From NCBI GenBank assembly GCA_002633005.1, contig NMRA01000985.1:39728-78006 (forward strand): a stretch of 38,279 nucleotides of DNA, given 5' to 3'. Shown piece after piece: positions 3,906 through 34,665 of the stretch. The stretch is from Phoronis australis. Lineage: Eukaryota > Animalia > Phoronida. The position numbers and the translations under genes were made by a program. The notes below the pieces were generated by a model. It saw only the letters and a list, made by a program, of their open reading frames with translations, made no database searches and was not told where the DNA came from. The first letter of the stretch is position 1, and each line of letters starts with the position of its first letter.

Positions 3906-4060
3906 CCTGTGCGTACTCGCGCCTCATTATACTCGGGCTCAAACATATACCCACCCACTGACTGTCCGTGAAAAAATTCCTCGTCACCACTGCTATGAAC
4001 AATGTCTCCGTTACTCACGTCACTATTGTCACTGTGATATGGGTCACCGACTCCAGCCCG
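3905..4060 (-). pseudogene. Kolobok KolX 5' fragment
   Basis: GDIVHSSGDEEFFHGQSVGGYMFEPEYNEA, homologous to 34359-34510; start codon appears lost. Confidence 0.75.
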
Positions 4061-5813: not shown

Positions 5814-6902
5814 AACAAGAGCAACGCGGAGCGTTGAAATGCGCCCACAATTGCACCGCATACGGTATCCTTCTAGGGTTGTTTATTGGTACCATAAAGT
5901 GGCCAGTAGAGGGCATACTTTGCAAAATGGAAAGGCATGGTCATTGTCTCCTCAATAGGCTAGGGGCAAAATGTGAGTAATCTTCATAATACAAGCACAT
6001 CCTATACACCAGTTGCTTAAAGCACCACAGAAACAAAAAATTAAAAACAAATTTACCAACATACGAGATTAGCACAGCATTAGAATGCCAGAAACAAATT
6101 TCTACTTGGAACTTTTCCTTCACAGTCACGAAGTAACACAAAGTATACACCTGAAGACCTATGAAAATACAGAGGTCAATGTAAAATACTAAAATTGCCA
6201 CTAGAGGCAAATACTAAAATTGCCACTAGAGGCATACCGGTAGTCAGAATCATCCTAAAGTCGTCATCGTCCGTTGTCAACATCACATAAATACACTTGC
6301 TAAATTTAGTAAAGATCCTGCAAACGGTTTGGGAGATACAGCCATGGGCGCAAAAAAACAAAACTGCCACTAGGAGGCGCCACAGTAGTCCAAATCGTCT
6401 GAAAATCATTGTCAGCTGTCTTCCTTATAGTAAGCACATACACGCCAATTTTCACAATCATCCTTTGAGCGGTTTGGTTGATAGAGGGGTGGACGCAAAA
6501 ATACAGACTCGAAAACAGTAAAAATGGCCACTAGGTGGCGCAAACTACGTCGAATCCATCTGAAAACAGTAGGATAGCGTCATCTCACTAATAGGTGCCT
6601 ACATACCAAATTTCATGAAAATCCGTTCAGGACTTTTGAAGATACAAAGGTAAGCGTAAAAAACTAAAATTGCCACTAGGGGGCACACCGGTAGTCGAAT
6701 CCGTCCGAAAGTTCGCACATGCCGTCCCATTCATGAATGGAACATATGTGCTAAATTTCATGAACGTATGTCAAAGGGTTTTGGAGATAGAGCAGCGGAC
6801 GCCGGACGCCAGACGCCGGACGGACGCCGCCCGGAGGGACGGACGGACGGACAGAGATGACGGCATAATGCGTCCACATATAAATATGTGGGCGCATAAA
6901 AA
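5814..6902 (-). mobile_element. Helentron-type non-autonomous element (HINE/DINE-1-like) with ~150-bp internal repeats, in UBA5 intron 1
   Basis: On the minus strand: TTTTTATGCGCCCACATATTTATATGTGGACGCAT (sub-TIR plus hairpin), (GTCC)n microsatellite at ~6815-6852, core repeats, then TGGGCGCATTT-CAACGC-TCC-GCGTTG-CTCTTGTT (sub-TIR plus 3' hairpin). Confidence 0.8.
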
Positions 6903-7294
6903 TGACTAAACAAACTAAGAGAAAAAATGATGAGGAGTGACTGTGAAAAAGAAACTAAAAAAACTATAACTACTTCTCCCTCCCTACCTAGTGGACAAAC
7001 AGCCCCATAAACGAGACAAGTTAGTACAAACGCAAAAACCATGGTGGCCGGTAAACTAAACTATATAATAAAAAAACAATGTGACTGGGGATACCTACCT
7101 ACGTTCACAACAGCATCCATGTTTTGACTCGAGTTCCCGATTGGACAGTTGGCATTATGCTAGTTAAAAGATAAAGCATCAAGCCTGACAAAAATGAAAT
7201 AAAGATTCTGAGCTCCCACCTTGAATAAGATTTGATCAAAAGGCCAAAAAATTTTGGTTATTTCCATTATCAGTTGATTACACACCATGGTTAC

Positions 7295-8768: not shown

Positions 8769-8907
8769 ATGTCGGGCATTGAATATTTACAAACAAGTTT
8801 CTGCTCTTTAATTGACGAGGCCCAAGAAAGCCTGCTGCCTAATTTTGTGTCCTGGCTTGACTTGAAAGTTGCTGAATACAAGGTGCTGGGGCATATGGTT
8901 CTTAAAG
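8769..8907 (+). CDS. C2H2 zinc-finger gene ZNF-A, coding exon 1: uncharacterised N-terminal domain
   Basis: MSGIEYLQTSFCSLIDEAQESLLPNFVSWLDLKVAEYKVLGHMVLK; Kozak-like gccATG; donor AAAG|GTaaat in phase 1 joins in frame to 9459; paralogous exon at 29918-30065. Confidence 0.88.
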
Positions 8908-9458
8908 GTAAATGTGAATGTTCATTTTACATAGGTCAGTTAAAACTGTTGTGATATGCAATTTTATCTAAGTTTTATTTTCATAATTCACAACAGAATG
9001 GCCCTGCAGGTACCAAATTTACATGTTACGGTTCAAGATAGTCTTTAAAGCATATACTTTTTCAAAACATCTAAGCAGCAAGGTTTACAATTTCTGTGGT
9101 AAAATCTTATGAATGACAGAATGTTATAGTAGATGCATACATGAATGTATTCATATTTTTTCACAAGTGACAAATAGTATGAAGTAAATGTTTTCATTGT
9201 TTTTCTAAAATCCATTACCATAGCTACCACCAGTAAATATTTTTGAGAATTTTGTGCAAGGTTAGAAGCCATCAGGAAACAAAAAAAAAATCAATTTTGG
9301 CAATTACTTTTGTCCGGAATTGGGGAAATTTTACCGGAATTGGCCACGGTTACATGGAGTTCACTGGCTTCACACATTGTGGCTTACAGATTTGTTGTCA
9401 CAAACTTGATTTATCCTAACTTAAAGATCTAACTGAATGTTTTGTGCCTAATTTTCAG

Positions 9459-10582
9459 ACCAGAATAAGATGTCACAACAACAGTTGAATGCTTCTAAAG
9501 TAACAAAACAATTGGAGTCCATAATAAAAAATGTTGGTGACCATGAACACAGAGGTGAGGAGATTGCATTCCATGAGTCAAGAAAACTGTCATCAGGCAA
9601 AAATTCCCACTTATATGATCTTCACTTGCACCAGGTTGTAAAAACTGGGCGACGAAAAGCTACAAATCCTAAATTCATTTCTAGTATCCTCCGCACCAGT
9701 GCCCTGGGTAAAAGTCTCAACCAGTCGATTTCTCTTAATGAAGCTGGTTCAGAGTCACAAACCAATTCTCTCGTAGACAGCACAAAAAAGTTTGCCTCTC
9801 TGGAAACTGAACGAGAATGTCACAGTACAGGCCAAATAGATCAGTCAACTAATACAGTGGGCCTTGAACCCAAGTCTGAGTCACTTTCTGTCACAATCAA
9901 GACAGAACCTCTGGATCCTGACATTGAGGCAACCCCCACCACTCCAGACCCGACAAAAATGCTATGCGAGGACACAACGATGGCCGACACCTCTAGCTTA
10001 GCCGCCAATCAAGATAGACCGGTTGACACAAGTCCCACAGTGGTAATGCGCGTTCCCCAGTATGTGCCACAGATGCAGCCGTCGCTTGAGTCCAACTTAA
10101 ACATACGAATGGTACACACAGGTGAGTACCCATATAAGTGCGATATGGAGAAATGCCGCAAGGGCTTTCATAGTCAGTCTATGCTAGGCATGCATCAACA
10201 AGCTGTGCACGGGAAAACATGGAATGACCAGAAGTGTGGTGTGTGCGATCTGGTGGTCAGTACACCACAGCTGCTCTCTCAGCACATGAGGTCGCATGAG
10301 TGTGGCGAGTATAGGTGTTGCCAGTGTTTGAAAACGTTCTCGTGCAAATACTACCTAGACCGGCATATGAAGACTCACGAAGAGAGAATACAATGTGATC
10401 ACTGCGAGAAGAGCTACACAACACGGCAGCACCTCAAAGATCACATGCGTATACACAACGAGGAGTTTAGCCGCTGCAGCAAATGCAACTTCAAGACCAC
10501 ATACTCTCAGAGTTTGCGACGTCATGTGGCCAGAGTGCACAGAATTTCACTGAATGGCTCCGACTTTGGGGATGATGTTTAA
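9459..10582 (+). CDS. C2H2 zinc-finger gene ZNF-A, coding exon 2 (low-complexity linker plus 5 C2H2 fingers); full protein ~420 aa
   Basis: Acceptor ttttcAG|AC CAG AAT AAG ATG in frame with ORF 9470..10582; fingers CDMEKC..HQQAVH, CGVC..HMRSH, CCQC..HMKTH, CDHC..HMRIH, CSKC..HVARVH; TGEYPY linker; candidate AATAAA at ~11107. Confidence 0.93.
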
Positions 10583-11569
10583 CGATTGTCTTTCTTCACA
10601 TGGAAACAAGGTTTGCTCTTCCGGGTTCACCGCTTCAATGTGACTACAGAATCTACCGTGCGACAGTCGAATTATGGTGTTTGAACTTCACATGGAACAT
10701 GAAATGGTTAAAGCAATGTGCTTTTTATGTCTTGTGCAGAGTTAATGTTTAAATGTTTTTGTTGAATATTAATGATGGAGGTGGTCGTTAGAACATTGAC
10801 AGAACAATGTGGAAATTTACATTGTTATTTGTTCCCTAGTTTGGTCTGTTGGTATCTCTTTCACTTAGAAGTTTGAAGTTCATTTGGTAATGTTCAGAAA
10901 ATTGAAATTCTTCATGTTACATGAATTTTTAAGTCCAATCCATGAATTTCCATTAGTTCGCTTTCAGTCTCGGTGCGCATAGGGCATCTTCTAAAGCTTG
11001 GTCTGAAAGTGACCCGTTGAATTGTTGCGAATGATCAAAAAAAGTTTGAAAAGACATTGTGTCTTATTTTGGGCATTCTGGTTTGTTGTTTTTAAAACTG
11101 GCTTTAAATAAATGTTAAATGATTGAGCATGGAACTTTGAATAAGATTTTTATTCAACCTAAAAATATGAGTTACATAATGCTAGAAGAAAATAAAAATA
11201 CCCCTTCTACATGTAAATGCCAACAAACATATCACAACACCAACATTATGCAAATATGCTAATGCAAATACCATGGTGTATACATTCGTAATGATTGACA
11301 GGATTAAAATTAATTACTACTGACAATCTACAATATCAATTAAAATAGCTTATCAAAAATATTACTGATTTCAAAAAATAACAGGCAGCACTGTTAATAC
11401 ATCAAATCAGTCCAGTTACACCATGTTGATGCTTTTACAATTGTCACAAAAGTAATTGTGAGTATTCTTAAGACGGGACCCAAGTTTCAATCTGAATGGC
11501 TAACTCACCATTATCCAGTTTCCGATCTCTAAATAAAAGTTATTAACCCATGACCTTTTCACAGAAGTT

Positions 11570-11830
11570 ACAAGAGCAACACTGGGGCGTTGACATGCTC
11601 CCTCAATAATTTCTAGGGGTCAGGAAGAGGTGCTGGGAGAAATCGCTCTTCCCCCAAAAAATATGAAAACCCCTTGAGAGCAAAATGGCCACTAGGTGCT
11701 CTTTGTCAAACCCACCCAAAATTGACCATCAATCGGTTCAAAAGGTATCATTTTGCGTCCTCCTTTTACCCATTAAAGAGGTTTGCATACTGGTGCACAC
11801 ATCTAAGTTGTGCATACACGCCCAGTTCCA
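11570..11830 (-). mobile_element. Degenerate Helentron-type element end
   Basis: ACAAGAGCAACACTGGGGCGTTGACATGC resembles the ACAAGAGCAACGCGGAGCGTTGAAATGC terminus; AAAATGGCCACTAGGTG core motif at ~11682-11698. Confidence 0.45.
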
Positions 11831-12308
11831 TGCACATGCACATGCACATGGGCCTAATGGGGTGGCAATACGGTAAAGCTATTTTTGTGTATAGTTCAGA
11901 CACTTTTTCAGCTCGAGATTCTCAAGCTACCATTGATAACACTTGATTGACTTCACCAGTTCTGCCTGGTCAACTGGCTAAGACATCTGATTGGTTCTTG
12001 ATATGATTACTGGCATACATACCAATCAGATGTCTTAGTTGGTTGACTCTGCACTGTACTGATGAAGTCCATCAAATCCACCCATATGCGAGTACATGGA
12101 TTAAGAATTACAATGCATGACAAAAGTATTCAGAAAAAATGACCTGGACTTTCCGATCATTATTGCTGGGGATAAATTCATTGTCAAAGTATGTTTCTGT
12201 TAGGACCAAGAATAAATGGGATTTAACAGGAAAGTTAGAATAGTGGCTAAGCCATGCTGTTTTGAATTTTGGCACTATAATAGCCATTACCTGACTATCA
12301 TTTTGATG

Positions 12309-14213
12309 TGTTGTGTATGCTAGCGCCATCTATTGTAAACGTGTTTAGCTATTCTGAGACCACCGAGGTGATTTTCCTAAAGTGAAAACAAACCGAACTT
12401 AAATCCAAGTCATTCGCCAAGGCAAATGTTAGTAGCAGTTCCATAGCTAGCTTTCGAGTGTTTAAAAGAACGCTGGGAAAATTATAAACGTCGGCTGGAC
12501 TCATGGATCAAAATTAACGTGAAGGACGAGAAAAAAGTTGATGCGATGTTGGCTGTGATAGGCCCAAAAGCAGTCAAACAGTTGGTTGCCGTATTCTCCA
12601 GACAACATCGAGGACAAAACGTACAATGAACTTTGCCAACAAATGTATGACTATGACCACATAAACAATGAGTTGGCTGCTTCTTACACATTTGACACTC
12701 ATTCACAAAACTTGGGAGAGTCAGTTGCTCATTTCATTGTAGCGCTAAAAAAGCTCAGTGTTGAGATTAACTTCGGGAGTTCCGACCAAATTAAACAACG
12801 TCGTTAAGGTGGAGGGGTGTTATGTATTTTGCCCGATAGATGTCACCATAGGTAGTAGTTCCTGACAATACAGTCTAAGAAAGAAACCACGTTGTTTATG
12901 TCTCCGTAAAATGTGGTAACAAACGTGACACTCACGAGCTTGTAAAGAGGGCAGAATAATCACACGCATTCCCCACAATATCATCTACGGTCACGTGAAA
13001 TTGCGTCGTCTGTAGTACTGCATAGTGATCACCCCAGCCATTTAGTGTGAAGTCCAAAACACTAGCTAACACCGGATCCTTACGAGTGCATTCTGCGACA
13101 TCTTTTGACATAACAAGTAAACTATCTACATAGTATTACTTAGCTGAAGTTCACTTCAGAGTCAATGTTCTCGGAGGGAACTTCAATTGGCGCACGACTT
13201 AGATACTGCGTTCGTGTTTTGTATCGATGTGCGATAACAGATGGTTTAGTCATAGTTCACAAGCAATAATGCCCCTCCTTGCAATCGTGAGTGCTGACAG
13301 TGTCGGAATACCAGTTTTTGGTCCTAGTATTTGACACCACCATATATCATCTGGCATCTAATGGACTGGCTGAAAGGGCCGTACAAACCCTAAAGGATGC
13401 TTTGAAAAGGGACATTTCGTTGTGTGACTTTGTTGACATATCGTAGTATACCACACTCCACCAGTAGCTGAACTGTTTTACAATAGACAATTGAGAACCA
13501 TACTCTCATTGCTGAAGCCCGATTTAAAAGCACATGTGAAAACCAAACAGGAACTCGCAGTAGATTATCGCAACAGTTGTGTGTCAAAATTTCGCGTTTG
13601 CGTGAAAAACACTCGTGGTGGTAACGTGAATTTTGGCCTGGAGTAATAGTACACAAGACTGGACCTGTAAATTATCTAGTGTGCATGGGACTAAACATCA
13701 GATATGTACACATAGATCACCTGATAGCCTCCAATGAGGTTGATATAGATAACTTGTTACAAGGTGACTCTTTGGATGTGCCAAATGATGTCACGACTGG
13801 AAACAAATCTGTTTTTGACCCCTTGGATTCATCAAAAGCAGTCATCACCTGCTGTTGATAATGTGCGCGTTCCGAACATTCCGAATCCGGTTGACTGCGC
13901 TCTGAGTACTACGAATCCGGTTATTCAAGCTCCTAACAAGCCTGCTCCGAACATTGTAAGTCCAAAGGTGGAATTACGTCGATCAACTAGACTGAAAACT
14001 GTACCAAACAAATTAAAGGACTCGTGTCTATAGCTAAGCTTTTGGTTAAGAAAAGTAACTTAACAGTTGTTAAGATTTCTGTTTTTAGATTAGAGACTTG
14101 ATTAAAGGATCTTGTCTATTAAGCAGAAAGGAGTATGTTGCGTACACTAGCGCCGTCTATTGTAAGCGTGTTATATTAGTTTAGTAATAAAGCTATTCTG
14201 GGACCACACGACA
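12309..14213 (+). mobile_element. Ty3/Gypsy LTR retrotransposon remnant (gag and integrase fragments; protease/RT/RNase H deleted)
   Basis: Short LTRs 12309-~12363 and 14136-14213 (TG...CA); purine tract AAGCAGAAAGGAG before the 3' LTR; 5-bp TSD TGATG at 12304-12308 and 14214-14218; gag-like ERWENYKRRL..., QNLGESVAHFIVALKKLS; integrase-like SNGLAERAVQTLKDAL, WPGVIVHKTGPVNYLV, LRRSTRLKTVPNKLKD. Confidence 0.9.
12804..13115 (+). mobile_element. Polypurine tract plus ~298-bp LTR of a second LTR family inside the Gypsy remnant
   Basis: TTAAGGTGGAGGGG is followed immediately by TGTTATGT (12818) ... ACATAACA (13115), 8-bp inverted termini; begins exactly where gag similarity stops. Confidence 0.6.
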
Positions 14214-15347
14214 TGATGTAAGCATAATTAGTCGTAATGACGGAAAAACGATATTTTGTCTCATTACTTTTGTCCCGTGTACTGATTTAGCTATAGTTGA
14301 AACATAACATACAGAATGTTATTCAAAATGGTCATTTTAAGATAATGCTGAAAATAACGTCTAAAATTGGCAAATACACAAAGCCAGAAAAACTGAACCG
14401 CAGACGTTTGAATGAAACAGGAATCTTGACAAGCATACGTCTGACTTGCGCGAGTTTTACTGTCTGAGTGCAGTATGATGGATTGTGCCTGGCATTCAAC
14501 AAAGACAATAAAAAAGAAAATGATTCTAGCCATCATTATTGCTCTGGCTCCCACTGCATTCACAAAGTACACAGCAGCTGGTGAAGTAACAACCATTTTG
14601 CAACAGGTTGATCACAATTGAACAGCTTATAAACACCAGACACGAACACTAACTTTCTCTTTAAGATGCCCGTCAGGAAAGTAAACCAAAAAATTTACTT
14701 CCCAGAAGGCAAAACTTGCTAGTGCTCGAATCGTTGAGTATTAAAAACATAAGTCAACAATCTAGCTTGAGTTTAGTTCTGTTTTGAGCGATCAGATACG
14801 GATACACCCATATGGCATGGCGCTATGAAATTTCATTTGCACAAAAGCAAACGTTACCTGCTGTTGGGCCCTCAGGCTACTACTAGTGTCATACGTTATA
14901 CAAATATGTCGAATTTTAAAAGTTTAAAACCCGTGCCATAGTATCTGTAAACAACACCAATATACCTATGAAGCATTTATTTATCAAAACAATGGTAGTC
15001 ACACTATTTATTTCTACAACAATGTTTTGCGATCAACCCTTGTACAAGTTTTGTCCTTTTAGAATTAGATAACTTTGTCAAGAAAGTGTTAGGACCCAAG
15101 GACATGTTTGGCAGCAGATAACAATTATTCAAACTCTGTTGAGCTGAAATAAAAACTGTACGCTGAGGCACAACGGTTGCGCTGAAACAAAAAACAATGT
15201 CCGACCATCAAGTGACAGTCTTGTTCCGTTTTTGAATTGTAACAGTCATTTGACTGCAAGGTGTTAATTCTGCCTTCCTCAGAGAACATTTATCTGTAGA
15301 GAACATCAGAACAGAGTTCGAGTGCGGGAACATGGTCAACTGACACT

Positions 15348-15529
15348 TCATTCATACGTGATATTTGGATGATGCTTTCTCAAATGTTCGGTCAACTTGC
15401 ACGGCCGATTGAAGCCAGTCAGACAGACTGGACAGTGATAGTTGACTATCTTCAAGTGGACTTCCTTAATGTGCTGCACTGCGTTGTATGGCGACTTGAT
15501 GACTCGGTTGCAAAGTTTACATTGGTAAC
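15348..15529 (-). CDS. C2H2 zinc-finger gene ZNF-B, last coding exon (2 C2H2 fingers, stop codon)
   Basis: ctttctttaAG|GT then YQCKLCNRVIKSPYNAVQHIKEVHLKIVNYHCPVCLTGFNRPCKLTEHLRKHHPNITYE*; phase fits the exon at 16738-16835; absent from the ORF track. Confidence 0.88.
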
Positions 15530-15600
15530 CTTAAAGAAAGCGAGATCAAACTATGAAGGGCATTTTCTATGTTTCATTCTATGTTAGTGCTAAATGAAAT

Positions 15601-16140
15601 AACAAGAGCAACGCGGAGCGTTGAAGTGCGCCCACGACAGCACTGCAAACAGTGTGCTTATATGGAGTTTTTAGTATCACAAAAATGGCCATTAGATGGC
15701 GCAGAATGCGTCGAACCCATTGGAATTGAGAAGGAGGTGCCATCTCTGTAATACACAACTATTTACCAAATTTCATAAAAATACGCCAAGGAACTCCTAG
15801 GATTTTAAGGTAAACGTAAAAATCAATTAACACTGGGGGCACAGTTATAGTCTGATTGGCCGAAAATTATAGTCATCCGTTGCCATAATCCTGCCCATCT
15901 GCAAAATTTCACAAAGATCCTTCAAAGGGTTAAAAAGATACAACCATAGATGCAAAAAACAAAATTGCCAAAAGCGGACACCAGAATAGTCAAAAACATC
16001 CGCAAATAGCGTTAGCCGGGATCTTCGCATCAGGAACACAACCGCCAATTTTCAAAATGATTTTGTAAGTGGTTTAGAAGATAGTAAGGCCGACGTCAAA
16101 AGCATAATTTTTTAAATGGCCACCAGGTAGTGCAAAAACA
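15601..16140 (-). mobile_element. Truncated Helentron-type element, same family as 5814-6902
   Basis: AACAAGAGCAACGCGGAGCGTTGAAGTGCGCCCA terminus plus diverged core repeats (GGCCATTAGATGGCGC, GGCCACCAGGTAGTGC). Confidence 0.7.
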
Positions 16141-16737
16141 TCAAATCTGTAGACTTTCTAAAACCACTCTGAGGTGGTGGCGTGTTACTATTATCAAAAT
16201 CTCTTGGTCTATTTACACTGTCATGACGTTTCGGTCGGTCTATTCTCCGAGGCAGGATTTGAACCCACGAATTCTGAAACTGCAGACAATTCGAGTCATG
16301 AGTTCAGTTGGTCGAGTCACATTAATACAACGATGAGAATCTTGTATAGCCAGATCTGTTTCAAAGCATGCTTTGCATAACTGTAGACTCAGTTTAGCTT
16401 TTAACTTGGGATTCAATTCCAATTTCCATGTAAAATCTTGTTTATACGACGTTTGTTTATGCACCAATAATGTTACATGACGCAAAAACCCAGCTTCGGA
16501 CAAACACAGCTAAAGTACAACCATTTTCAGAGGAATAAAAACGTGACTGATTTCCAAATGATTAGCGTTGTTTTCCACCCAAATTCCTTCTGCATTCCCA
16601 CCACAACCTACATACAAGTCAACTTATTTCAATTTTTCCTACACTTTTTATAACTATTGAGTCTGACTTGATTGCCATTACAGCATGTGAGCAGAGGCCA
16701 CATATACAATGCCAAACAAGGATAAATACATAAATAC

Positions 16738-16835
16738 CTGCTTCAGTTTCTACTGTGTGTGTGGACAAGAGGCCAGAAATGGATGAAGACATTGAAGATG
16801 TCCGTCTGGTGGCGCTAAGTGACTTTGCCGGGGAC
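16738..16835 (-). CDS. ZNF-B coding exon 3 (Ser-rich)
   Basis: ttccctgtgttccAG|G TCC CCG ... SPAKSLSATRRTSSMSSSISGLLSTHTVETEA G|GTattt; 98 nt, phase 2 in and phase 1 out, matching both neighbouring exons. Confidence 0.75.
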
Positions 16836-17356
16836 CTGGAACACAGGGAATAAAAATTAAATGTATTAATATCAAACAAACCTTAAAGACACAAATCATG
16901 AACTACAAAACTATTCAGTCATTTAAAGTTGTTGAATATGAGTTAGGCGAAAAAGATAGCCAAAATTCAAATTAAACCCTGTTTGCACGTGACACATCGA
17001 AACATGTCGTGATCTTTGATCTACCGACAAAAAAATCTCCAAACTTGCTTGTAATGCATTCCTTGACTGTAATTGCGGCATAACTTAATTGGGGTCACCT
17101 AAAAAGTATCGGCCTTAGCACCCACCACCTACTTTTTGTTAAATAGTTGATTTTGTCAATTAATAATAAAATGGGACTTGGTTGTTAAAAATGTTCAGAA
17201 AGAAAATTTTCAATTAAAAAATAAACCAAAAATGAAAAAATAGAGGATTCGGCAACTTTAGAGTTCAGTTACGGATCAAACCAAGAGCGTGGTCTTATTG
17301 GCAGATTAATTTCAAAAGGCTAAGCTTGACGAAAGCATTGGGTTGAGCTGAGATAC

Positions 17357-17526
17357 AAATTGAGAGACAACAAATTTTAAATTGAGAGACAACAAATTTT
17401 AAATTGAGAGACAACAAATTTTAAATTGAGAGACAACAAATTTTAAATTGAGAGACAACAAATTTTAAATTGAGAGACAACAAATTTTAAATTGAGAGAC
17501 AACAAATTTTAAATTGAGAGACAACA
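17357..17526. repeat. 22-bp minisatellite x~7.7
   Basis: AAATTGAGAGACAACAAATTTT in perfect tandem copies. Confidence 0.97.
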
Positions 17527-17911
17527 GCCACAACAATCACTTTTCGCAAAACGTGACTTACTAACAGCCAAGTTTTAACTTTTAGAGTTTCAGCACCTGC
17601 GTTAAAGTGATGGCGAACCCTATTGTTAACAAACCAATAATCACCCCAGGAGATTATGAATTGTGACCATACTGATACACATAACCATATGATAATGCTA
17701 GCAGGCTGCCATCAAGTTCCAATAATAGCCATCACCTGACTGTCATTTTGATGTAAATTAAAATAATTAGCCGTAATGACGGGAAAACAGTATTTTGTCT
17801 GATTACTTTTGTCCTGTGTAGTGATATAGCTATAGTTGAAACATAACATACAGAATGTTATTCAAAATAGTCATTTTAGGATCTTGCTGAAAATGCCATG
17901 ATCTAAAATGT

Positions 17912-19659
17912 AACAAGAGCAATGCAGAGTGTTGAAATGTGCCCACGACACATCGCAAATGGTGTGCTTTTAGGGTTATTTATTTGTATCATAAATATGG
18001 CCACTAGATGGCTCAAAAACGTACAATCCATCCAAAAGCGGGAACATGCCATATTTCATAAAAATGTGTCAAGGAATTTCAGAGAAACAAAGGGAAACAG
18101 AGAAAAAATGAAAGTGTCACTTATGTGGGCACAGCGTCAGTTGGATCCGTCGGAAATTCGTTGTCATCTGTTGTCATCTTCATTATAAATAAACTCACTA
18201 AATTAAATAAAGATCATGCAGTGGGTTTCGGAGATACAGCTATGGGCACAAAACAAAACAAAACTATCATTAGGAGGCGCCACAGTAGTCAGTCACCATC
18301 ATCAAACATCGCCTTCACACTGAGAACATATACCGGTACACCAATTTTTAAAACCATCCCTAGAATGATTTGGTTGATAGAGGGGAGACGCCAAAAACAA
18401 GACTCAAACACAGCAGAAATGGCCAACAGGTGGCACAAAATACCTTGATTCCATCCAAAAACAAGATGATAGTGCACCTCACCAATAGGTGCCTATATTT
18501 AAAACTTTATGAAAATCTGTTAAGGACCTTTGAACATACAGAGTTAAACGTAAAAAACTAAAATTGCCACTAGGGAGCACACCAGAAGTCAGATCCGTCC
18601 AAAAGTCATCGCCATTTGTTGCCAACATCATATAAATACACTTGCTAAATTAGTTAAAGATCCTGCAAACAGTTTAAGAGATACAGCCACGAGTGCAAAG
18701 AATTGTAAAACTGCCACTAGGAGAAGACACAGTAGTGAAAGTCGTCAGAAAATCATCGTCAGCCATCTACTTCATAATAAAAACATACATGTCAATTTTC
18801 CCAACTATCCCTAAAGCGGTTTGGTTGATAGATGAGTGTATGCCAAAAAACAGACTCGAAAACAGTCAAAATGGCCACTAGGTGGTGCAAACTAGGTCGA
18901 ATCCATCTGAAAACAGAGGGATAGCGCCACCTCATTAACAGATGCATGCATGCTAAATTTCATAAAAATACGTTGAGCTTTGAAGATACAGAGGTGAACG
19001 TAAAAAAATAAAAATTGCCATTAGGTGGCATACCAGAAGTCTGATCTGTCCGAAAGTCGTCATCCTTCGTTGTTAACATCATATGAATACACTTACTAAA
19101 TTTAGTAAACATCCTGCAAACGGTTTAGGAGATACAGGCATAGGCGCAAAAAAAAAACAAAACTGCCATTAGGAGGCGCCACAGTACTTCAAGTCGTCGG
19201 AAATTCATAAATCAGCCGTCCACTTCATAGTAAGAACGTACATGCCAATTTTCACAATCATTCTTTGAGCGGTTTGGTTGATAGAGGAGTGGACGCAAAA
19301 AAACTAGAGAACAGTAAAAATGGCCACTAGGTGGTGCAAACTACATCGCATCCAACCCGAAAACGGGAGGATATCGTCATCTCACTAATAGGTGCCTACA
19401 CACTGAATTTCATAAAAATCCGTTGAGGACTTTTGAAGAAACAGAGGTAAACGTAAAAAACTAAACTTGCCACTATGGGGCACACCGGTAGTCGGATCCG
19501 TCAGAAAGTTCGCTCATGCCGTCCCATCCACAGAAGGAACACGTGCAAAATTTTATGAACATACAAAATGGGGTTTGGAGACAGAGAAGCAGACGCCGGA
19601 CGAATGGACGGTGATGACGGTATAACGTGTCCACATATAAATATGTGGGCGCATAAAAA
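17912..19659 (-). mobile_element. Helentron-type non-autonomous element with expanded ~450-bp higher-order internal repeat
   Basis: Same two termini as 5814-6902 (AACAAGAGCAATGCAGAGTGTTGAAATGTGCCCA ... CCACATATAAATATGTGGGCGCATAAAAA); about 3 copies of a 3x~150-bp unit. Confidence 0.82.
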
Positions 19660-19704
19660 TGTGGAGTCTATCCTAGCATTTACCCGTGGGTAGTGGCTAC
19701 TTAC

Positions 19705-20296
19705 ATGATATGACTCGCTGGCTTACGTCCAGGTCCTGGACTTTGAAACTGCGATGACAGAGAGTGGTTCTGTGACAGTGGAAGAGGTGACGACGATTGC
19801 GATGTGACAGGAAGCTGTGTTGGGAGATAATGAGATTGACAGTTCGCTGGCTCCTGTCCCACTGATTGGTCGAATGGTGGCTCTAACTTGACACTGACTG
19901 TATTCTGGCCAAAATCACCAACAGAGTCCAATTCAACAACGTCACTGAGATTGTAAGAAATATTTGATGAAGCACTGCTGACTTGATGTTCCAGCACCTC
20001 CGTTTTGACTGACAAGTCACCATCATACATGTCAAAAGACTGACTTTCACCACTCTCCCTATTGTACTGATAGTTGGATGGCTCTGCCGACTGTAAATTA
20101 GTGACAGACTTTGTAATGGCTGAAAGACCCTTTGCCAGACCCTTACCGCGTGGCCACCTATTACTGCGATGCTTCTTAATGCCAGTCTGATTTCTATTGA
20201 ACCGGAATCCCTGTGAACCAGAAGGTCTACACGGCTTATTTTCAGCAACTGATGCATTACTAGTGGGTTGCCATGACGAAGAATTTTCATTGTCAT
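19705..20296 (-). CDS. ZNF-B coding exon 2 (low-complexity S/Q-rich linker with basic patch and psi-K-x-E motifs)
   Basis: Within ORF 19701..20333; acceptor tcttcttctgtgctgttctttgcAG|AT GAC (phase 1) and donor ATC AT|GTAAGT (phase 2); 592 nt open. Confidence 0.82.
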
Positions 20297-23200
20297 CTGC
20301 AAAGAACAGCACAGAAGAAGATGTTTCAATCAATGCAAGACAATGACAATGTTGGTCATGACTTATTAGTTGCCCTTACAAATTACACCCCACTCACTCT
20401 GATCACCTTTGTGTCTCCAATTACAAGCCCAGTACATTCTAACAAGTTCTATAAGTTCAATTTACTCGGGCATGTCTTTACCGATAGGCTTGACATGCTG
20501 CTTGGCAGGGGAAAAGCACCTTGCCTATAGGCTAGTCTTGGTGTAGCAAAGCCTGTAAACACTATTTTCATGACTTGTATTATTTTACAAAGCGAAAATA
20601 ATTATGTAACTGAATCATGGACACCAGAGTGACACATTTCGATGTCAGTTTATTGGGTTTTTCTTGGTCAGCAACTGTCTCGCCACTTAAAAATCTAGCC
20701 AAAATCAAGTGTTCTCATTTGAAATACATGGCAAATTCTCACGTAATCTCACACAAAGCAGGGATATAGCAGGTTTCAAAACCCTGCTTGCCAGCTGGGC
20801 GAGCCAGAAAATCTACTCGGCCAACCCAAAGTTCAGTCGCCCAGCCTTTTGTGTCTGTCACCACAAACTTGTTACCTTGTGTCAATAAAAGTCATTATTT
20901 CGTGCGTTGATGTCACCATCTATTAGGACTACCATATTCACCCTATTAAGAACCCAGGGTGCTTAGAAAATTCGTTTCGGAAGGAGGGTGCTTGTTGTAG
21001 CCTAAGGCGGTAAAAACCCGGTTTACGAAACGGGTGAAATCGGAAGCTAGGATTCATCAAATTTACGCACTGTGACGTATCTGCAACCTATGACAGACTT
21101 TCTACAAAACTGTGGTGCATTGCTATCAAACTTTGTTGTTGAATTACGATATTAAAAAAATGCTGAAATCCTAAGGAGAAAACTTGCCGATTGATGCATC
21201 GATGTCTCGCGATCGTTGATAGGGCAACTTGAATTCTTGAGTAAAAATACAGTTTCGACTCAACAAATTACCTGAAATCCTCAAGTTTTCTAAAAAGCGT
21301 CATTAATTTTTTTAGTTCCTGTGGAGGCGGTATTAACTGCAGATTAAGTGCAAATCTGCGCTAGATCGCACCCCGCAACACGAGAAAAATTTGGACGAAC
21401 ACACATGTTGTGAGGTGACGTTTGTTTTGAAGTTAGTTTGCAGGTGTGCACCGAGTGAGCGTGTGCATGTCATCAGAGTTCATTTGCCAGAGTAGCAGGC
21501 CTACATATATGTAGGCCCTAGCACATACTTCTTGGCCATGTGCTCATTAACACTGGTCAAGTTTCGATTAGCGGCTTTCACGTGCATGTACAAAGTAATC
21601 TGGATTCCTGTTGAGGGAGATCTGTACAGGAAAGATACAATCGGCATTTTTTCTTTCAGGGTGCAAATAAAGATTTTTTTAAGTTATGCAATCATATTGA
21701 CAGAATTCCTTCACCTTTGGCAGATATTTGTATGATGATCTTGTTTTAGCACTGGTACTTATGACATTTATGCATTTTAACGTATGAAAAAATAATAATT
21801 TATGGCCAGAGTAATCCTTGATATAGCTGAAAATTGTTAATTATGGCCAGAGTAATCCTTGATATAGCTGAAAATAGCCAGAAATCCGTTTTATTGTTTC
21901 ACTGAAACATTGCGGGTTTTTAATACACATGGCATTTAATTAAATCGCTCATTTAATTGAAATTTAATGTTTTTTCATGAACCTAACATGTATTTCTTGT
22001 TTTTCTTCAGGAAATTGCAGGGATCTGAAAAGTCAAACACAATTTTCAGGCACAATTGCAAAATGATGTCAATGTTATGCAAAACAAGTAAATCTGCATA
22101 TATGCTCCTTCTCTTACAGCCATGGCTGAAAAAGAAAAGCATTACTAGTGTTTTAAACTGTTTTTTAATGGTTGATGGTATATAGAATTTGATTTAGAAA
22201 CCACATATTTGTACCAGATGTCCTAGTGATTGGATTCCTCGACCAAATAATATAACCTTCACCTAAGAAAAACTGTGTATTCTCCGTAGCCCTGTCTGAA
22301 TTCCATTGAATTCTTCCATAAATAAAAGATATTTGATACTGCACATTGAGAATCTTGAAGCTTTTTTTGGCCCACAAAAAATATTAGACCAAGACCTGGA
22401 TTTGAATTGGTCATGAGCGAAAATGTCTCAATTCTCCGTAGCCCCTGTATTCTCCGTAGCCCCCAACTTTGAATTGTTAGTACATGGTTTGAAAATACTT
22501 GTACCTAGGTGCATGTACTGAAGAAATAGAAACAAATAAACTAACCAAGACAAAAAAATAAAAAAAAAATATTTATGGGCGGTATTTGAAGCAAGTTTAG
22601 CTAAAATTACTTTTTCAGTTTAAACTCGTTATTAATAAAAAATGAATGTTCTTTGGTCATTCAGAAGTGTTGGTATTAACAAGTAAATGAATTATATTGC
22701 ATTGCTCAAGTGTTCATCCACTTATGAAGAGGTATCTGCACATTTCGTATTCTCCGTAGCCCCCCTCCATGACCTCTCTGTTAAGTGAGATTTATGCATT
22801 CAATGTTTCCTGATGATGAAAAGTGCTTTTCTGTATTTCTTTGAGGGTAGTTGATGGAAACAGGCACCCCATTGATGGTGACGTGACTCTGATGATAGTT
22901 AAGAGCTGAGTATGTTCTAGGATAAAATTTTACTTTCCATTATCATGTTAGATTTTTGTATTTGCACAAGTGTGAAGAAAATTGAGACAGTATTATCTCC
23001 CTTTTTCTAAATACAATGTCACGTTTTCCCCGTGTGTGGGTGGGCGCAGGTTGTAACAGACCTGTGCTAATAGCTTTCGGTGTGAAGATTGACTGAAGAC
23101 TGGTTCAAGTCAATCCTTTATTAATCCCGACTGTATGTTCACAAGCCTACTCAAACAAAACGTACCACGTAATGTCTGTTTATGCTCCAGCCAGTGCTGC

Positions 23201-23379
23201 AAAACCTTGACTTGTGATGAACTTCTGAGACACGTTCAGCAACTGTTACACTCGTCTATTCAATAACCAGCTGTCTCTATAGCTGGCTTTCTATTGACTA
23301 TCGCTGTAACTGCTGATTCTGTTCACTGCAACTCAACTGTAATTCTCCTGATCAAGTTTCTTGAACTGGCTTGATCTCA

Positions 23380-23483
23380 ATTGAACTGACTTGATCTTCT
23401 CTTCAACTGACTTGATCTTCTCTTCAACTGACTTAATTTTCTCTTCAACTGACTTGATCTTATCTTGAACTGACTTGATCTGA
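23380..23483. repeat. ~21-bp tandem repeat x~5
   Basis: AACTGACTTGATCTTCTCTTC-like units. Confidence 0.85.
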
Positions 23484-23593
23484 CTAACACAAACCGTGCT
23501 TGTGTATAGCCTAATGCATTGTTCAGGAACTTTTCATCATTTCAAGCACATTCTAGAACTTTCCTGAATCTACCCAACCATTCTACAAACATG

Positions 23594-24100
23594 TATTGTA
23601 TTCGCCGTAATAACTGCCCATGCCCCTATAAGCGCCCTCCCCCCACGCATTTGCAGACTTCGCTGAAATAAGCGCCCAGTCCATGAACGTGTACATGCGA
23701 ACAATGACGTACCTACAGCTCCTAAAACTCGGCTACAGTAACGTCTTCAACTTATCAAAAAAATTTTGCACGGGTCTTCTAGACCACCAGCGGCACTGCT
23801 ACGTTGATATTTAGCTGTGATCATACACTTCAAAGTAACGCAGCGCTTCAAAAAGAACGCAACAGTGTCGCTACTCTGGTGACGACCGTGTCCCACTATG
23901 GTCTGACCTTTCAGTATAGACACATCAAATGTCTATGAATAAAAATAATTCAGTTTGAACGCACGTGGCCAGGAAGCGCGCGTTACATATATGAACCTGT
24001 CATCAAAGACATTAGTCGGGAACAATCCATTCATGAAACGTGTAGCATAGCATCAGTAAGAAATAAATATTGGCACTGATTTCCGACAATTTCTAATAAA
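23594..24100 (+). mobile_element. Tc1/mariner-like non-autonomous element fragment (family also at ~1100-2523, ~27770-28040, 36899-37120)
   Basis: GTATTCGCCGTAATAACTGCCCATGCCCCTATAAGCGCCC terminus; internal GTGTCCCACTATGGTCTGACCTTTCAG matches the reverse complement of ~27792-27818. Confidence 0.6.
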
Positions 24101-24144
24101 GGCGATATTTTTTCAAATGAGACAATATTATTTAGTCTCAAAGT

Positions 24145-25670
24145 GTGCGGAACGGTTCTGCTCCCCAAGCAGAATTTTCACTTTTGTTAATTATTGTTAG
24201 GGTAGAAGTTCTCATACTTTTATGTTTTATGCTTGTTGCACGTTAAGATTCGAACATTTCCTGGCTTGTGTTAAGGTTCTACCAAAAGTGGTAAAATGGC
24301 ATAGACAAGATGTCAATTTTCCCCGGGTCTACTTAAGGTAGGTTTCTTCATCACAAACCATTCAGCAAGTTCCTCACTGATTAATCATTGTTCTTGCTGA
24401 CACATTGATATTTTCATGTGTCATTGAGAATAGAATATATTTCAATTTAAATGTGCAAGAAAAATTTTTAAACAATTGTGAGCTCCTCAAAACTATTGTT
24501 TGTGGAACGGTTCCGCAAACTAATTATTGTTAGGATTGTCACATTGATACTTTCAAGTGGCATTGATAATGGAATGCATTTAAAGTTGCTTGGACAAAAA
24601 ATACCCTGCAAAACCATTCTGTTCTGGAAATCACTCCCCATGCGGAATGGTTTGCATGCGGAACGGATCTGCATGCGGAACGGTTCCGCAAGTATCACTT
24701 TTATTAATTAACTATTGTTGGGGTAAAAATTCTGATACTTTTATGTTTAATGCTTGTTCCACATTAAGATTCGTATATTTCGTGGCTTGTGTTAAGGTTC
24801 TACCGAAAGTGGTAAAATGGCATAGACAAGATGTCAATTTTTCCCGCGAGTCTGCTTGAGGTAGATTTCTGCATCACAAATCATTCAGCAAGTTCCCCAC
24901 TGGTTAATCAATGTTCATGTTGACACATTGATATTCTCATATGCTATTGAGAATAGAATATATTTCAAGTGAAATGTGCAAGAAAATTTTTTTTAAAAAT
25001 TGTGAGGATCACAAAAGTATTGTTTGCGGAGCGGTTCCGCAACTGTTACATTGATCAACTTATTACAGTTAGGATTGTCACATCGAAAGTTTTAAGTGGC
25101 ATTGATAATGGAATGCATTTTAAGATGATTGGTGAAAAGAAATACCCCATCAAACCATTTTGTTTGGGAAATTGCTCCCTTTGCAGAACGGTTCCGCATG
25201 CGGAACGGTTCCGCAACTGTCACTTTTATTAATTAAATATTGTTGGGGTAAAAATTCTGATACTTTTATGTTTAATGCTTGTTCCACATTAAGATTCGAA
25301 TATTTCGTGGCTTGTCTTAAGGTTCTACCAAAAGCGGTAAAATGTCATAGACAATATGTCGATTTTTCCCCGAGTCTGCTTGAGGTAGGTTTTTGCATCA
25401 CAAACCATTCAGCAAGTTCCCCACTGATTAATCATTGCTCATGTTGACACATTGATATTTCCATATGCTTTTGAGAATAGAGCATATTTTAACTGAAATG
25501 TGCAAGAAAATTTTTTTTAAAACTTGTGAGGATCACAGAAGTATTGTTTGCGGAACGGTTCCGTATGCGGAACGGTTCCGCAACTGTCACATTGGTCAAC
25601 TAATTACAGTTAGGATTGTCACATTGATACTTTCAAGTGGCATTGATAATGTAATGCATTTTAAGAGCAT
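24145..25670. repeat. ~520-bp tandem repeat x3 containing GCGGAAC-G-GTTCCGC palindromes
   Basis: Homologous blocks start at ~24191, 24711 and 25237 (TATTGTT(A/G)GGGTA(G/A)AA...); repeated pseudo-ORFs in the ORF track. Confidence 0.92.
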
Positions 25671-25699
25671 TTGTGAAATCAAATATCCAGCAATGCAGT

Positions 25700-26549
25700 A
25701 AGAGCGCTCAACAAAGGAACAGCGCTATCAGAAAATCTCACATAATTCGAAAAGTAGACGTTATAGCGAAAAATGGAAAACATCTTTGAATTCTGAAAGC
25801 CCGTTCCAAACTCTATCCAAATTGATAGTTTCGCAACATTTCATAATTTTTTCGAAAAAATTGAAATTTTGTGTTTTTTGAAATTCAAAGTCAAACAACT
25901 CGAAATCGGTAAGTCTGAGAAAAACGTTATCCTAGAACTTTTGAAAGAGCATACTTCAAGGAATCCACATGCAAAAATTCACGTCATTTGCTCTTCCCAT
26001 TAAAAATGCGACAGCAGAACGATTGAAAATGGGTGAAAATGCGTCAGAGCCGCCAGCTTGAAAGTGACTTCCAGTTAAACAAAATTTTATAAAAGCTGAT
26101 CAATAGCAACAAACACGTGACCAGTTTGAAAGTGATTGGTTCGCCAATGCGCCCTCTACAGGAGAAAATGTTTTTGGCCAGATATCGAGGTGCGCATGCG
26201 CCATTGTCAATATTTCTGCCATCTTTAACCGGTAGTTAACGTTTTTCGGCACAGTTGTTGCACATGTATTCTACAATAATCGTACCAAGTTTCATCTCTG
26301 TACATCAAAAAATGCGGCCTCTATGAGCATTCGAATGTGATATCGGAAAAAAATGGCCACCACGTCCGCCATTTTGAATTCGATCAAGATCAAAAACAAC
26401 AGGCTTCCAGGACTTTTCGATCTACACGTCGTATGAAAATTTCGTGAGAATCGGACGAAAATTGCGACCTGTATAGTGCGAACAAAAAAAAATTGAAGAC
26501 AGAGCAACATACTTGTCGGAATTCGAATAATTCCGCCAAGTAAAAATAC
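25700..26549 (-). mobile_element. Possible second Helentron-type family element
   Basis: Terminal hairpin ACTTGTCGGAATT-CGAAT-AATTCCGCCAAGT followed by AAAAA at ~26511-26546; internal AAAATGGCC...CGCCATTTTGAA motif; other end uncertain. Confidence 0.35.
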
Positions 26550-29070
26550 TGTCAGACTATATTCTGACACACAACAGTTTTGTGTAATTCAGAAGTAGTA
26601 GTATTGACAAGTAAATGAATTCTTTTGCATTGCTCCAGTATTTTTCTTCCCACAAATAGTTACCTTCGCATTTTATATTCTCCGTAGCCCCCCACTGACC
26701 TCTGGGCAGGCCTTTATGCAGCATACGTCCTGGATGTCCATTTGGACGCCCTAGCACTAATCTGGACCCTAGCACTAATCTGGACGCCCTGGCAAGGATG
26801 CCCAATGTATCATTTGGACGTCCACTTTCAATAGGAACCTTTCAAGTATGGACTCGCACATTGCAATGAATACTAGGAAGCCTCTGAAGTGGGGGGACTC
26901 TTTTTTCAAAGCAGGAAGAAATATACAATGTAGATACAAAGTATATACAATGTTGCTATGCTCACACTCAGTTAATAGCATTGTAAAGTCTTGGTCTACA
27001 TTTTTTTTTAAGTAATAATGCTCACTACAGAAAGCTGTTTTGTAAGCTTAGATGTAAAAACCGCTTGGTCTATGCATTTTTTTGTAAAAAAATCTGTGTG
27101 TTTGGGGGGATTGCTGGGGATGGGGGTCTATGCGTCGGAATCATGGATGCACTGGAATATTGGGAACCCTATTTTGGACACCCTATTTTCAAAATCCTGG
27201 ATAAAGGCCTGGCTCTGTTTTATGTGAGATTTACCGGTATTTGTGCAAACAATGTTCACTGATAATGAAAAGTGTTTTATTGTACTTATTTGAAGGTAGT
27301 TTATGGAATTAAGCATTCCTTTTGACAGTGATGTGCCTCTGATGATAGTTTAGTGCTAAGTATGTCTAAGGATTAAGTACAATTGCTATGTTTCATTAGT
27401 ATACTCACACCTTGTGAAGCATACACAAGTGTGAACCTAGTTTTTTATATTGATGTTCAGTGATCAAGTACATGAGTTACCGGAGTAATAAACTTTCTTG
27501 TTCCTAAGCCAGATTTAAGCCTTTTCCAACATGGATGTAACAATACCAATGATGTATTCTCCGTAGCCCACATTTTTTATTTTTGTTATTTCAACAGGCC
27601 AAATCTTAAAAACTAAATCAGGATACTTCATAAAAATTTGACGTGATATTCCCTGTGTCATGTTGAATCCAATAAAAGAAGTCTCAAAGCTGAAATTAAA
27701 ACTTCATAAAATGCCATTTCTGAAACAAAAGCGTGCACCCTGAGTGAAAAAATGCCAATACAATCCTGCTGACAAGTACGCTGCGTCTGTTCTGAAAGGC
27801 CTGACCATAGTGGGACACGTTTCTCTCAAGATCAGCAAAACTTACGTTCTTTTTGAAGCACTGCGGAAGATTGAAGTGAACAGACCCGGTTAAATACCGA
27901 CATAGCGGTGAGGCTCGTGGTCTGGAAATTCCGCGCACAATGATTTTTCAGGACGGTGGGAAATTATTGATAAATTGAAGACATTACTGTGGAATTTTAG
28001 AACTACAGGTAAGGCATTTCTAGCATATGTACACGTTTACAAAATAATTTTGGCTAAAAATGACATTGTGCATTACAATGAGAAATCAGTTCCAAGAAAT
28101 ATGCCATTTCAATTGCTGTGAGCACAAGGATCGGTCTTCCGCCTCCCCCCCCTTTTTTACTCCACAAATTCCTTTGTGCAAACCACACACTATGATCTTT
28201 TGTCTAGACGAATCGTGTAACGGGTGACATCTACTGAATCGGTAGGATCGCACTGCGCCAATGTTTTTTACTGCCGAAGCATCGACACGCTGACCAAACT
28301 GAACCTTAAATTCATGATAAAAACAACACAAGGAGGAGAAAATTTATTCATGTTCATCCGGGAAACAAAATAGTGCTTTTGTGCTCTGAAAATTCGCTCG
28401 CCACCTGGGCAATCGACAAGTCAACTTCTACTCGCCCAGCACCATTTTTACTCGCTTTGGCGAGTGGCTAAGTATATCCCTGCAAGGTGTTGCTTTTTAG
28501 CGAGGTCCAAGCATTACTGAACTTTACACAGAACTTCCAGACAAGAAGGAAAGTGAAATGCAGCAATATCACTTTAGGAATGTAGCAAAGGGCCAGGAGA
28601 AAAGTAATTAACATCAAAGTGTGTAAGGGACAAGATGCCCATTATATTTTTAGCGCAAAAAACACTAGAAATGTCGGCCTATCAGTTTCCAAATGGTTTG
28701 TAAGTGTCTGAAGAAGCCTATCGGAGAAATACTATATTCACTGTACAGGTTGAAGTGTCTTTAGTGACTAGAACACACACTTGGTAAAAATCACACCTGC
28801 CCTTCAAGTACATAGTCAAATAAAGTGGAATCAGGAATCAGAAAAAATAAAGAAATGCAATTGAGGGAACAAAAAAGGCTCGTTTTTCCGAGTGTGCAAG
28901 AAGTTGATGGCACGGCGGGAAACCTCAGTTTGTGTGCTCGATGTGCACAGTGAAAGTGACGTCTTGCCATGATAAAATTGCACCGTTGCTGCAAATTGTG
29001 TTCAAGATTCAACTCTGTAAGCAAACAAACGTGGAAACCAACAGACGTGAAAACGATGAGGTGTTGTGAA

Positions 29071-29373
29071 ACTATGTTTAACATACATTACCTGCATAGC
29101 ACTATGCTTAACATACATTACCTGCATAGCACTATGTTTAACATACATTACCTGCATAGCACTATGTTTAACATACATTACCTGCATAGCACTATGTTTA
29201 ACATACATTACCTGCATAGCACTATGTTTAACATACATTATCTGCATAGCACTATGTTTAACATACATTACCTGCATAGCACTATGTTTAACATACATTA
29301 CCTGCATAGCACTATGTTTAACATAAATTACCTGCATAGCACTATGTTTAACCTACATTATCTGCATAGCACT
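29071..29373. repeat. 30-bp minisatellite x10
   Basis: ACTATGTTTAACATACATTACCTGCATAGC in near-perfect copies; source of ORFs 28969..29391, 29002..29337 and 29066..29326. Confidence 0.98.
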
Positions 29374-29917
29374 TTCGATCAGTCAACATAATAAGAACAG
29401 CAGTTATTTGACATGTATGCATGACTTTGCTTACATTATCAGAAAAACTAGAAATCCAAACAAAAATGAATTCTTTGAAAGTAAGTCAAGAATAATTTAT
29501 TCGAGGTTTCCCAAATTTTCGTCCAGGGGTCTGTTACATGAAAGGCAACTGAAGACTTACGCAAAAAAGTTGGTCTTACACTCCACAGTATTTTTGAAAA
29601 CAATTATAGCTCACGTAAAGGAAAAATGCAGCCTGTGAGAATGCACACACATTACAAGATACTGAGATAACTATTATTATTATTATTTCTAGACTACGGT
29701 GTGCTAATAATAGCTTTCCTGAAACTTTATTCAGAAACTGTGAAGTGGGAACACAGCAGCAAACTTCTCTCAAGTCTTATACGACTTAAAAGTCACTTTT
29801 CAAAAAACACACTGCTGAACAGATTATGCACAGAATGAAGTAAGTCAAATTTTAGCTTGCCTCAACAAAATGCCAAGCTCTCTCTCTCTCTCTCTGTCAG
29901 ACAGTCAGCGCACTCAC

Positions 29918-30065
29918 CCTCAGTCAGAATCATGTGACCATACACTTTGTATTCAGCAACTTTTAAGTCCAACCAAGCCACAAAGCTGTTCATGGAATCG
30001 CCTTTAGCTTGAACAATCAATGAACAGAAGCCGATCCTCAGCTGCTGTGACGTGAGATCTTCCAT
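29918..30065 (-). CDS. C2H2 zinc-finger gene ZNF-B, coding exon 1: uncharacterised N-terminal domain (full model 30065-29918, 20296-19705, 16835-16738, 15529-15348; ~339 aa)
   Basis: MEDLTSQQLRIGFCSLIVQAKGDSMNSFVAWLDLKVAEYKVYGHMILTE; donor GAG G|GTGAGT in phase 1; upstream acceptor at 30105-30106; four exons total 1020 nt and are open to the stop. Confidence 0.85.
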
Positions 30066-34358: not shown

Positions 34359-34665
34359 ATGGCTGGACTCGGTGACCCGTATCACAGTGACAGTAGTGTG
34401 AGTGACGGAGACCTTGTTCACAGCAGTGGTGACGAGGAATTTTTTCACGGACATTCAGTGGGTGGGTACATGTTTGAGCCCGAGTATAACGAGGCAGAGT
34501 ACGCACAGGCACAGGCAGCTGTTGAGAGAAACGAGGCGGCTACTGAGGACAGACGTGGTGACACATCTTGATGCAAATGCACTGTGTGCGTTCTTATGCC
34601 TACCTCAATGGAATGCTTGTGCTGTTCAGAGTTCGATGAGGCCAAGCCACTACTGGACATGGTTA
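34359..34665 (+). pseudogene. Kolobok KolX 5' part (related to the P2X7 cytoplasmic C-terminal Cys-rich domain)
   Basis: MAGLGDPYHSDSS...GYMFEPEY...RRGDTS*CKCTVCVLMPTSMECLCCSE; TGA at 34569-34571 replaces the W of the WCxCxxC...ECxCCxE motif. Confidence 0.85.

Follow-up and report, generated by a model that had tools for sequence, protein, structure and literature searches.

An unnamed N-terminal domain shared by two zinc-finger genes of Phoronis australis and by mollusc and annelid proteins, compared with that of the TTK-type BTB factors

Lineage-restricted N-terminal domains occur on several kinds of C2H2 zinc-finger proteins. ZAD, which binds zinc through two CxxC pairs, and SCAN have a dimerisation role, and the A box of KRAB is characterized by the motif VTFxDV. 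KRAB and FiNZ are each encoded on their own exon upstream of the finger exon, FiNZ being a Glu-rich domain of 28 amino acids (aa) in cyprinid fish, according to the available portion of Wells et al. 2023 (PMC10547256). The TTK-type BTB factors (lola, mod(mdg4) and tramtrack) are described, in the accessible part of PMC11426971, as arthropod-only, with no TTK motif in molluscs or annelids; they carry one or two fingers or helix-turn-helix (HTH) domains, and their isoforms differ in the DNA-binding domain. Here we analyze a stretch of 38,279 nucleotides from Phoronis australis (contig NMRA01000985.1, positions 39,728 to 78,006; hereafter the window), in which two C2H2 genes, ZNF-A and ZNF-B, begin with the same unnamed domain of about 46 residues. 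As judged from profile searches, this domain represents a real, apparently undescribed family present in molluscs and in one or more annelids, and the best reading, by analogy, is that the family works most like the TTK-type BTB factors and not like KRAB.

Two genes with a common first exon

ZNF-A (+) and ZNF-B (-) are convergent, with their 3' ends facing each other (tail to tail). Their exon junctions are predictions from sequence, made on GT-AG introns and an open frame. The predicted ZNF-A has 2 coding exons encoding 420 aa with 5 C2H2 fingers, and ZNF-B has 4 coding exons encoding 339 aa with 2 fingers. These models agree with the original prediction, made from the DNA letters, in finger number (5 vs 2) and in the number of further exons (1 vs 3), and its coordinates and translations of the first exons were correct. 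The fingers of both genes were confirmed by Pfam. The two genes comprise:

8769..8907 (+), ZNF-A first coding exon: unnamed 46-aa domain, ending in a phase-1 GT donor
8908..9458 (+), predicted ZNF-A intron: GT-AG, phase 1; the acceptor at 9459 leaves the frame open
9459..10582 (+), ZNF-A exon 2: low-complexity linker with one IKTE motif, five C2H2 fingers (~10139-10540) and stop
29918..30065 (-), ZNF-B first coding exon: second copy of the domain, 49 aa, ending in a phase-1 GT donor
19705..20296 (-), ZNF-B exon 2: Ser-rich linker with VKTE and VKLE motifs
16738..16835 (-), ZNF-B exon 3: short Ser-rich linker exon with a phase-1 donor at its end
15348..15529 (-), ZNF-B last exon: two C2H2 fingers, then stop

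The first exon of ZNF-A has an acceptor-like AG 16 nt upstream of the ATG, and a second acceptor that keeps the frame is present at 9501. At ~10100-10135 (+), ahead of the first finger of ZNF-A, a His-TGEYPY linker is preceded by a Cys-free stretch, possibly what remains of a sixth finger since lost.

As originally reported, an ungapped alignment of the two first exons has identical residues at 24 of 40 positions; its local score is 128, and 5000 shuffles reached at most 53. Different codons are used at 11 of the 24 identical residues, including the synonymous differences CTT/TTG, TTG/TTA and AAG/AAA already noticed within WLDLKVAEYKV. The proportion of synonymous differences (pS) is saturated at 0.96, while that of nonsynonymous differences (pN) is 0.24; for the core (codons 20-39), the corresponding rates dS and dN are 1.27 and 0.12. 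Since synonymous sites are saturated and dN is low, the exons are, on this substitution pattern, old paralogues under purifying selection, the latter in line with what had been proposed for the domain. Both donors are phase 1, as stated earlier, but they are not at the same position: they lie one codon apart, the ZNF-B exon being the longer (LTE/G vs LK/G, with the slash at the donor). The linkers and fingers had been regarded as not alignable by eye; the remainder of the two proteins is in fact weakly alignable (score 98, maximum 67 in 500 shuffles), although the fingers are merely 23-31% identical and differ in their contact residues. Nucleotide similarity of the two exons within the window is confined to a 59-nt core with unlike flanks, and no third copy of the domain was found in the window. 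An origin of the exon from a repeat family unrelated to zinc-finger genes was also considered, and was rejected because only the core is common, the window has no further copy and the homologues are genes.

Distribution and architecture of the domain family

Searching with a single sequence gave no homologue (0 matches among 3 candidates), and only alignment-based searches worked. A metagenome scan yielded one locus (L001) with the same exon, the phase-1 donor and a long next exon. A three-sequence profile then gave 55 proteins, a 28-sequence profile gave 115 representatives at E<=0.001 (full HMMER scan of 1.84 billion proteins) and a 40-sequence profile gave 11 matches, so that the profile search called for in the original prediction returned 160 distinct related proteins in total. 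On a profile built from 38 homologues, with the window copies excluded, the first exons of ZNF-A and ZNF-B score 65.7 and 61.0 bits, respectively. The named proteins number 54, of which 53 are from molluscs (18 species in four classes: bivalves, the gastropod Haliotis, the cephalopods Octopus and Argonauta, and the chiton Liolophura) and one is from the annelid Dimorphilus; none of the 54 is from another phylum. The remaining 106 are nameless or their names were not looked up, names having been requested for 20 proteins in later look-ups. The original description of the domain as lineage-specific is thus not supported. Prokaryote genomes gave nothing (0 of 2 candidates), and a 10-residue match of 11.8 bits in viral contigs was rejected as chance. 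A tree of 136 rows and 46 columns, built by a quick method, leaves 77 of its 133 branches open and lacks the strength to position the organism or to resolve ZNF-A and ZNF-B as sisters; in it, both fall outside a group (support 87) with the named bivalve, gastropod and cephalopod sequences and within a weak group (80) together with four unnamed rows.

No described family could be assigned to the domain from the databases searched, among which current InterPro was not included. Neither the window copies nor the sets of 28 and 40 members match a Pfam family at cut-off, a check that had been suggested for this domain, and precomputed Pfam annotation of the 55-protein match list also gives no family for it. 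NCBIfam offers no naming family, with only 2 single-member matches (E 0.13-0.14). The best hit in PDB sequence searches (E 0.05), a duplicated 20-residue stretch matching RSC8, was judged to be chance. In the literature searched (subscription journals and supplements lay outside the search), the motif WLDLKVAEY is in no paper, topic searches found no description of the domain, and no clade-wide N-terminal module is described for mollusc or annelid zinc-finger proteins and related regulators. A 2025 study of C2H2 expansion in cephalopods, in the portion available, mentions no N-terminal domain (PMC12513265). The 46-residue profile unites into one family proteins labelled 'uncharacterized', 'EGR1-like' and 'dentin sialophosphoprotein-like'.

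That the domain is not KRAB, ZAD, SCAN, BTB or FiNZ, as originally claimed, is supported by the sequences, which have no Pfam match and lack the motifs. Among 139 distinct domains, none contains a CxxC pair (85 are Cys-free) and none contains VTFxDV; KRAB is not among the Pfam matches of the 28- and 40-member sets, and SCAN is matched neither by these sets nor by the window copies. Like the unnamed domain, ZAD and SCAN are lineage-restricted N-terminal domains on C2H2 proteins, and a likely dimerising role would be a further resemblance; unlike it, they are about twice as long, and the unnamed domain also extends beyond C2H2 proteins. FiNZ is set apart by its description, no direct alignment to it having been made: the present domain has 46 aa, a D+E fraction of 0.10, a hydrophobic character and named members in molluscs and an annelid.

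Of the 160 proteins, a partial one and one that did not match were set aside; the other 158 were anchored on an invariant Trp and comprise 75 short read-through open reading frames (ORFs) and 83 long proteins. In 80 of the 83 long proteins the Trp is among the first 45 residues, and no protein contains two copies of the domain. At 17 residues past the Trp, Gly is found in 53 of the 75 short ORFs whereas Asp or Glu is found in 78 of the 83 long proteins, indicating one conserved phase-1 intron, with the short ORFs reading through a G/GT donor. The domain therefore has its own exon with a phase-1 intron at its end, and this junction signature is conserved among the homologues. For example, in one protein of 694 aa (P0004) the first exon of L001 is joined exactly to a sequence 88% identical to the next exon of L001.

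The domain is followed by long, low-complexity linkers. The motif [VI]KxE, which is the consensus for the small ubiquitin-like modifier (SUMO), is present in the linkers of 74 of the 83 long proteins, compared with 12.8 in shuffles, and also in both window genes. A second Trp motif, about 22-33 residues past the invariant Trp at the start of the next exon, was observed in 56 of the 83 long homologues and in ZNF-B (exon 2, near 20270) but not in ZNF-A; given this motif, folding may involve residues on both sides of the intron.

What follows the linker varies. C2H2 fingers are present in 30 of the 83 long proteins (one of which also has psq), a QRICH1-like region in 16 and two unnamed conserved domains in 8 each; the others have BEN-like (2), Ets, HTH_32, HTH_Tnp or Nrf1-like (one each) domains or nothing recognised (15). 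Matches above the Pfam cut-offs are those to C2H2, Ets (E 8e-32), psq (1e-10) and DUF3504 (5e-8). As 53 of the 83 have no C2H2 finger, the earlier idea that the domain defines a new zinc-finger family is not supported. The two unnamed C-terminal domains, each of ~100 aa (one in P0018, P0022, P0070 and P0080, the other in P0023, P0036, P0042 and P0082), match neither Pfam and PDB entries nor each other, and ESM Atlas returned for one of them only unnamed clusters (score up to 0.90). They occupy the place of the DNA-binding domains in other members and are candidate DNA-binding domains on the basis of this position.

Different ends may also be attached to one front end within a single gene. The Liolophura gene LOC135463699 has five RefSeq isoform models that are common over 279-281 residues and then diverge, ending in two different finger pairs, one HTH_Tnp-like domain and two QRICH1-like tails. 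Isoform pairs come from the chiton loci LOC135463852, LOC135463764 and LOC135463713 as well, and a Potamilus gene ends in either fingers or psq. At least 7 such chiton loci are on a contig of the same 27.5-Mb size.

The finger arrays are short, with 1-3 fingers in 27 of the 30 finger-bearing long proteins and none with more than 6. A finger with the contact residues R-E/D-H/Y, preceded by a finger ending in R, is common to 18 of 22 finger-bearing homologues examined and occurs in bivalves, Haliotis, cephalopods, the chiton and Dimorphilus, with the Dimorphilus fingers 43-49% identical to those of Mytilus. We infer from these sequences that the domain and one finger pair are older than the mollusc-annelid split and that the other ends were swapped in later. 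The signature is absent from the window fingers, suggesting that ZNF-A and ZNF-B are derived. The short arrays, and the retention of the contact residues of one finger pair all the way from bivalves to the annelid, weaken the analogy with KRAB-like transposon repression.

Predicted fold and proposed role

AlphaFold2 modelling with 40 sequences predicted a two-helix hairpin (helices at residues 3-17 and 20-40) with a predicted local distance difference test score (pLDDT) of 94 and a predicted template modelling score of 0.65; with two sequences, the pLDDT was 83. The unnamed two-helix domain on its own exon, as originally envisaged, is thus borne out as a prediction. Foldseek gave 0 matches, and ESM Atlas gave no usable match for the Haliotis domain. 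The best VIA-align matches (Z 6.6, root-mean-square deviation 1.9 and 46 aligned residues for the 2-sequence model; Z 5.6, 2.8 and 44 for the 40-sequence model) look like generic helical hairpins, by which no family is named or excluded. Conservation extends over ~40 positions with a heptad-like pattern. F26 and W29 do not vary among the 139 distinct domains; hydrophobic residues account for 96-100% at positions 26-30, and D31, K33/R, E36/Q, K38 and G41 are near-invariant. The composition (D+E fraction 0.10, hydrophobic fraction 0.48, mean net charge -0.5) is hydrophobic rather than Glu-rich. Helix 1 is amphipathic (moment 0.40), while helix 2 (moment 0.06) is hydrophobic on all faces; since a hairpin of 46 residues cannot bury every face of helix 2, we infer that a partner is needed.

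These features suggest that the ~45-residue N-terminal domain probably makes its transcription factors pair or oligomerise, which is the simplest account because the module invariably occurs once, at the N-terminus, joined to small DNA-binding heads of varied kinds. In the proposed mechanism, two or more subunits would enclose helix 2, the domain would let short finger sets or small helical heads contact DNA as pairs, family members could mix through it, and the VKxE/IKxE motifs of the linkers would take SUMO and recruit co-regulators. The ancestor would have combined the domain with one conserved finger pair before the mollusc-annelid split; later copies would have exchanged last exons, the window genes being derived copies with their own fingers.

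This design resembles that of the TTK-type BTB factors, which, as far as the available description goes, also combine a clade-restricted N-terminal module with a long linker and one to three C2H2 fingers or HTH/psq heads. In both systems, isoforms of one gene have different DNA-binding ends (here in the chiton RefSeq models). The TTK-type factors homo- and heteromultimerise via their N-terminal domain, and the same is proposed by analogy for the unnamed domain. They differ in that no BTB match was obtained with Pfam here, the domain having only 46 residues in two predicted helices and an all-helical model, and in that it is found in molluscs and an annelid with partners including QRICH1/DUF3504-like and Ets domains. 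More tentatively, the domain could be a lophotrochozoan counterpart of the TTK-type BTB domain, i.e. an independently invented multimerisation module predating the mollusc-annelid split. The products of dozens of genes, alternative-last-exon isoforms included, would then combine through it into a mixed network of chromatin regulators whose heads are C2H2, crypton-like, BEN, psq, HTH and Ets. If the domain does oligomerise, the lola/mod(mdg4) plan, in which a single front end serves many DNA-binding ends, would have evolved anew from unrelated parts. The domain is short and could be tested directly in oyster, Platynereis or cephalopod systems.

The main rival is that the domain is an effector like KRAB or FiNZ, a monomeric handle for one conserved co-repressor that silences targets such as transposons. 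It likewise is short, lies on a single exon of its own ahead of the finger exon, as seen for KRAB and FiNZ in the available portion of PMC10547256, and has clustered paralogues, as locus tags suggest for the chiton and Solemya; the near-invariant D31, K33/R, E36/Q, K38 and G41 also suggest one conserved partner. This explanation is nevertheless unlikely: there is no sequence match to either domain, the unnamed domain is not acidic, the long tandem arrays of KRAB proteins contrast with the 5 and 2 fingers of the window genes and the 1-3 of most homologues, many members are fingerless, and the retention of one finger pair across phyla is unlike an arms race. Of the two putative roles originally offered, dimerisation fits better than an effector, and oligomerisation and co-repressor binding are not mutually exclusive.

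Two further explanations have less to recommend them. A signal for targeting or turnover (a degron, or a ligase or chaperone site), neither an oligomerisation nor a silencing module, would suit a short, N-terminal segment with hydrophobic residues exposed in the monomer model, but linear signals usually need less conservation than ~40 positions in a heptad-like pattern with a confident predicted fold, which makes it improbable. A derivation from the N-terminal helices of Nuclear factor I (NFI), with the domain aiding DNA contact or packing on the DNA-binding domain, is still harder to credit. It was raised by matches of 3 of 28 members to PF10524 (NfI pre-N; E 0.13-0.21) over 31-32 positions with equal query and model spans. 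These score 12 bits against a cut-off of 27, however, and are missing in the 40-member set and the window copies. No MH1-like core follows the domain, its mean net charge is slightly negative, and no NFI chain was recovered in PDB profile searches at E<=10 although NFI-X has been solved (PMC12630593, in the part available); NFI domains are, moreover, monomers with a zinc site according to the accessible parts of PMC12630593 and PMC12830966.

Several points weigh against the oligomerisation reading and the comparison with TTK-type factors. The proposed function rests on architecture and surface chemistry only, and the hydrophobic helix could equally bind a co-repressor. The BEN, QRICH1, HTH_32, HTH_Tnp and Nrf1 matches fall below the Pfam cut-offs, and 6 of the 16 QRICH1-like proteins were used to build their own profile. 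The 83 long rows are not independent, with orthologues and isoforms among them, the chiton isoforms are RefSeq gene models unchecked against reads, and no alternative last exon was seen for ZNF-A or ZNF-B in the window. The annelid range is a single named species.

Repeats and mobile elements in the window

The window DNA is animal-like, with 38% GC, and contains dispersed repeats. A dispersed element encoding a THAP domain (Pfam E 5e-6 to 7e-11) is present in three copies, at 2902-4394 (+), 34022-35719 (-) and 37444-38279 (-). The first copy is 81-83% identical to the other two, which are 99.9% identical to each other over 836 nt at the window end; with an N at 37443, this near-identity may reflect a recent duplication or an assembly overlap. 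Between the 3' ends of the two genes (12447-14033, +), broken ORFs resemble, by eye, the gag and integrase of a decayed long terminal repeat retrotransposon, for which Pfam yields only Integrase_p58_C (E 0.07). A zf-RVT domain (E 1.6e-7) at 36161-36556 (-) marks a fragment of a long interspersed nuclear element-type element.

The introns of ZNF-B contain tandem arrays. Intron 2 contains 2.6 copies (76% match) of a 452-nt unit at 18045-19661, with dispersed copies at 6156-6904 and 15681-16084, and other arrays are located at 29071-29373 (30 nt x 10), 17357-17526 (22 nt x 7.7) and 24178-25688 (three copies of a ~520-nt unit).

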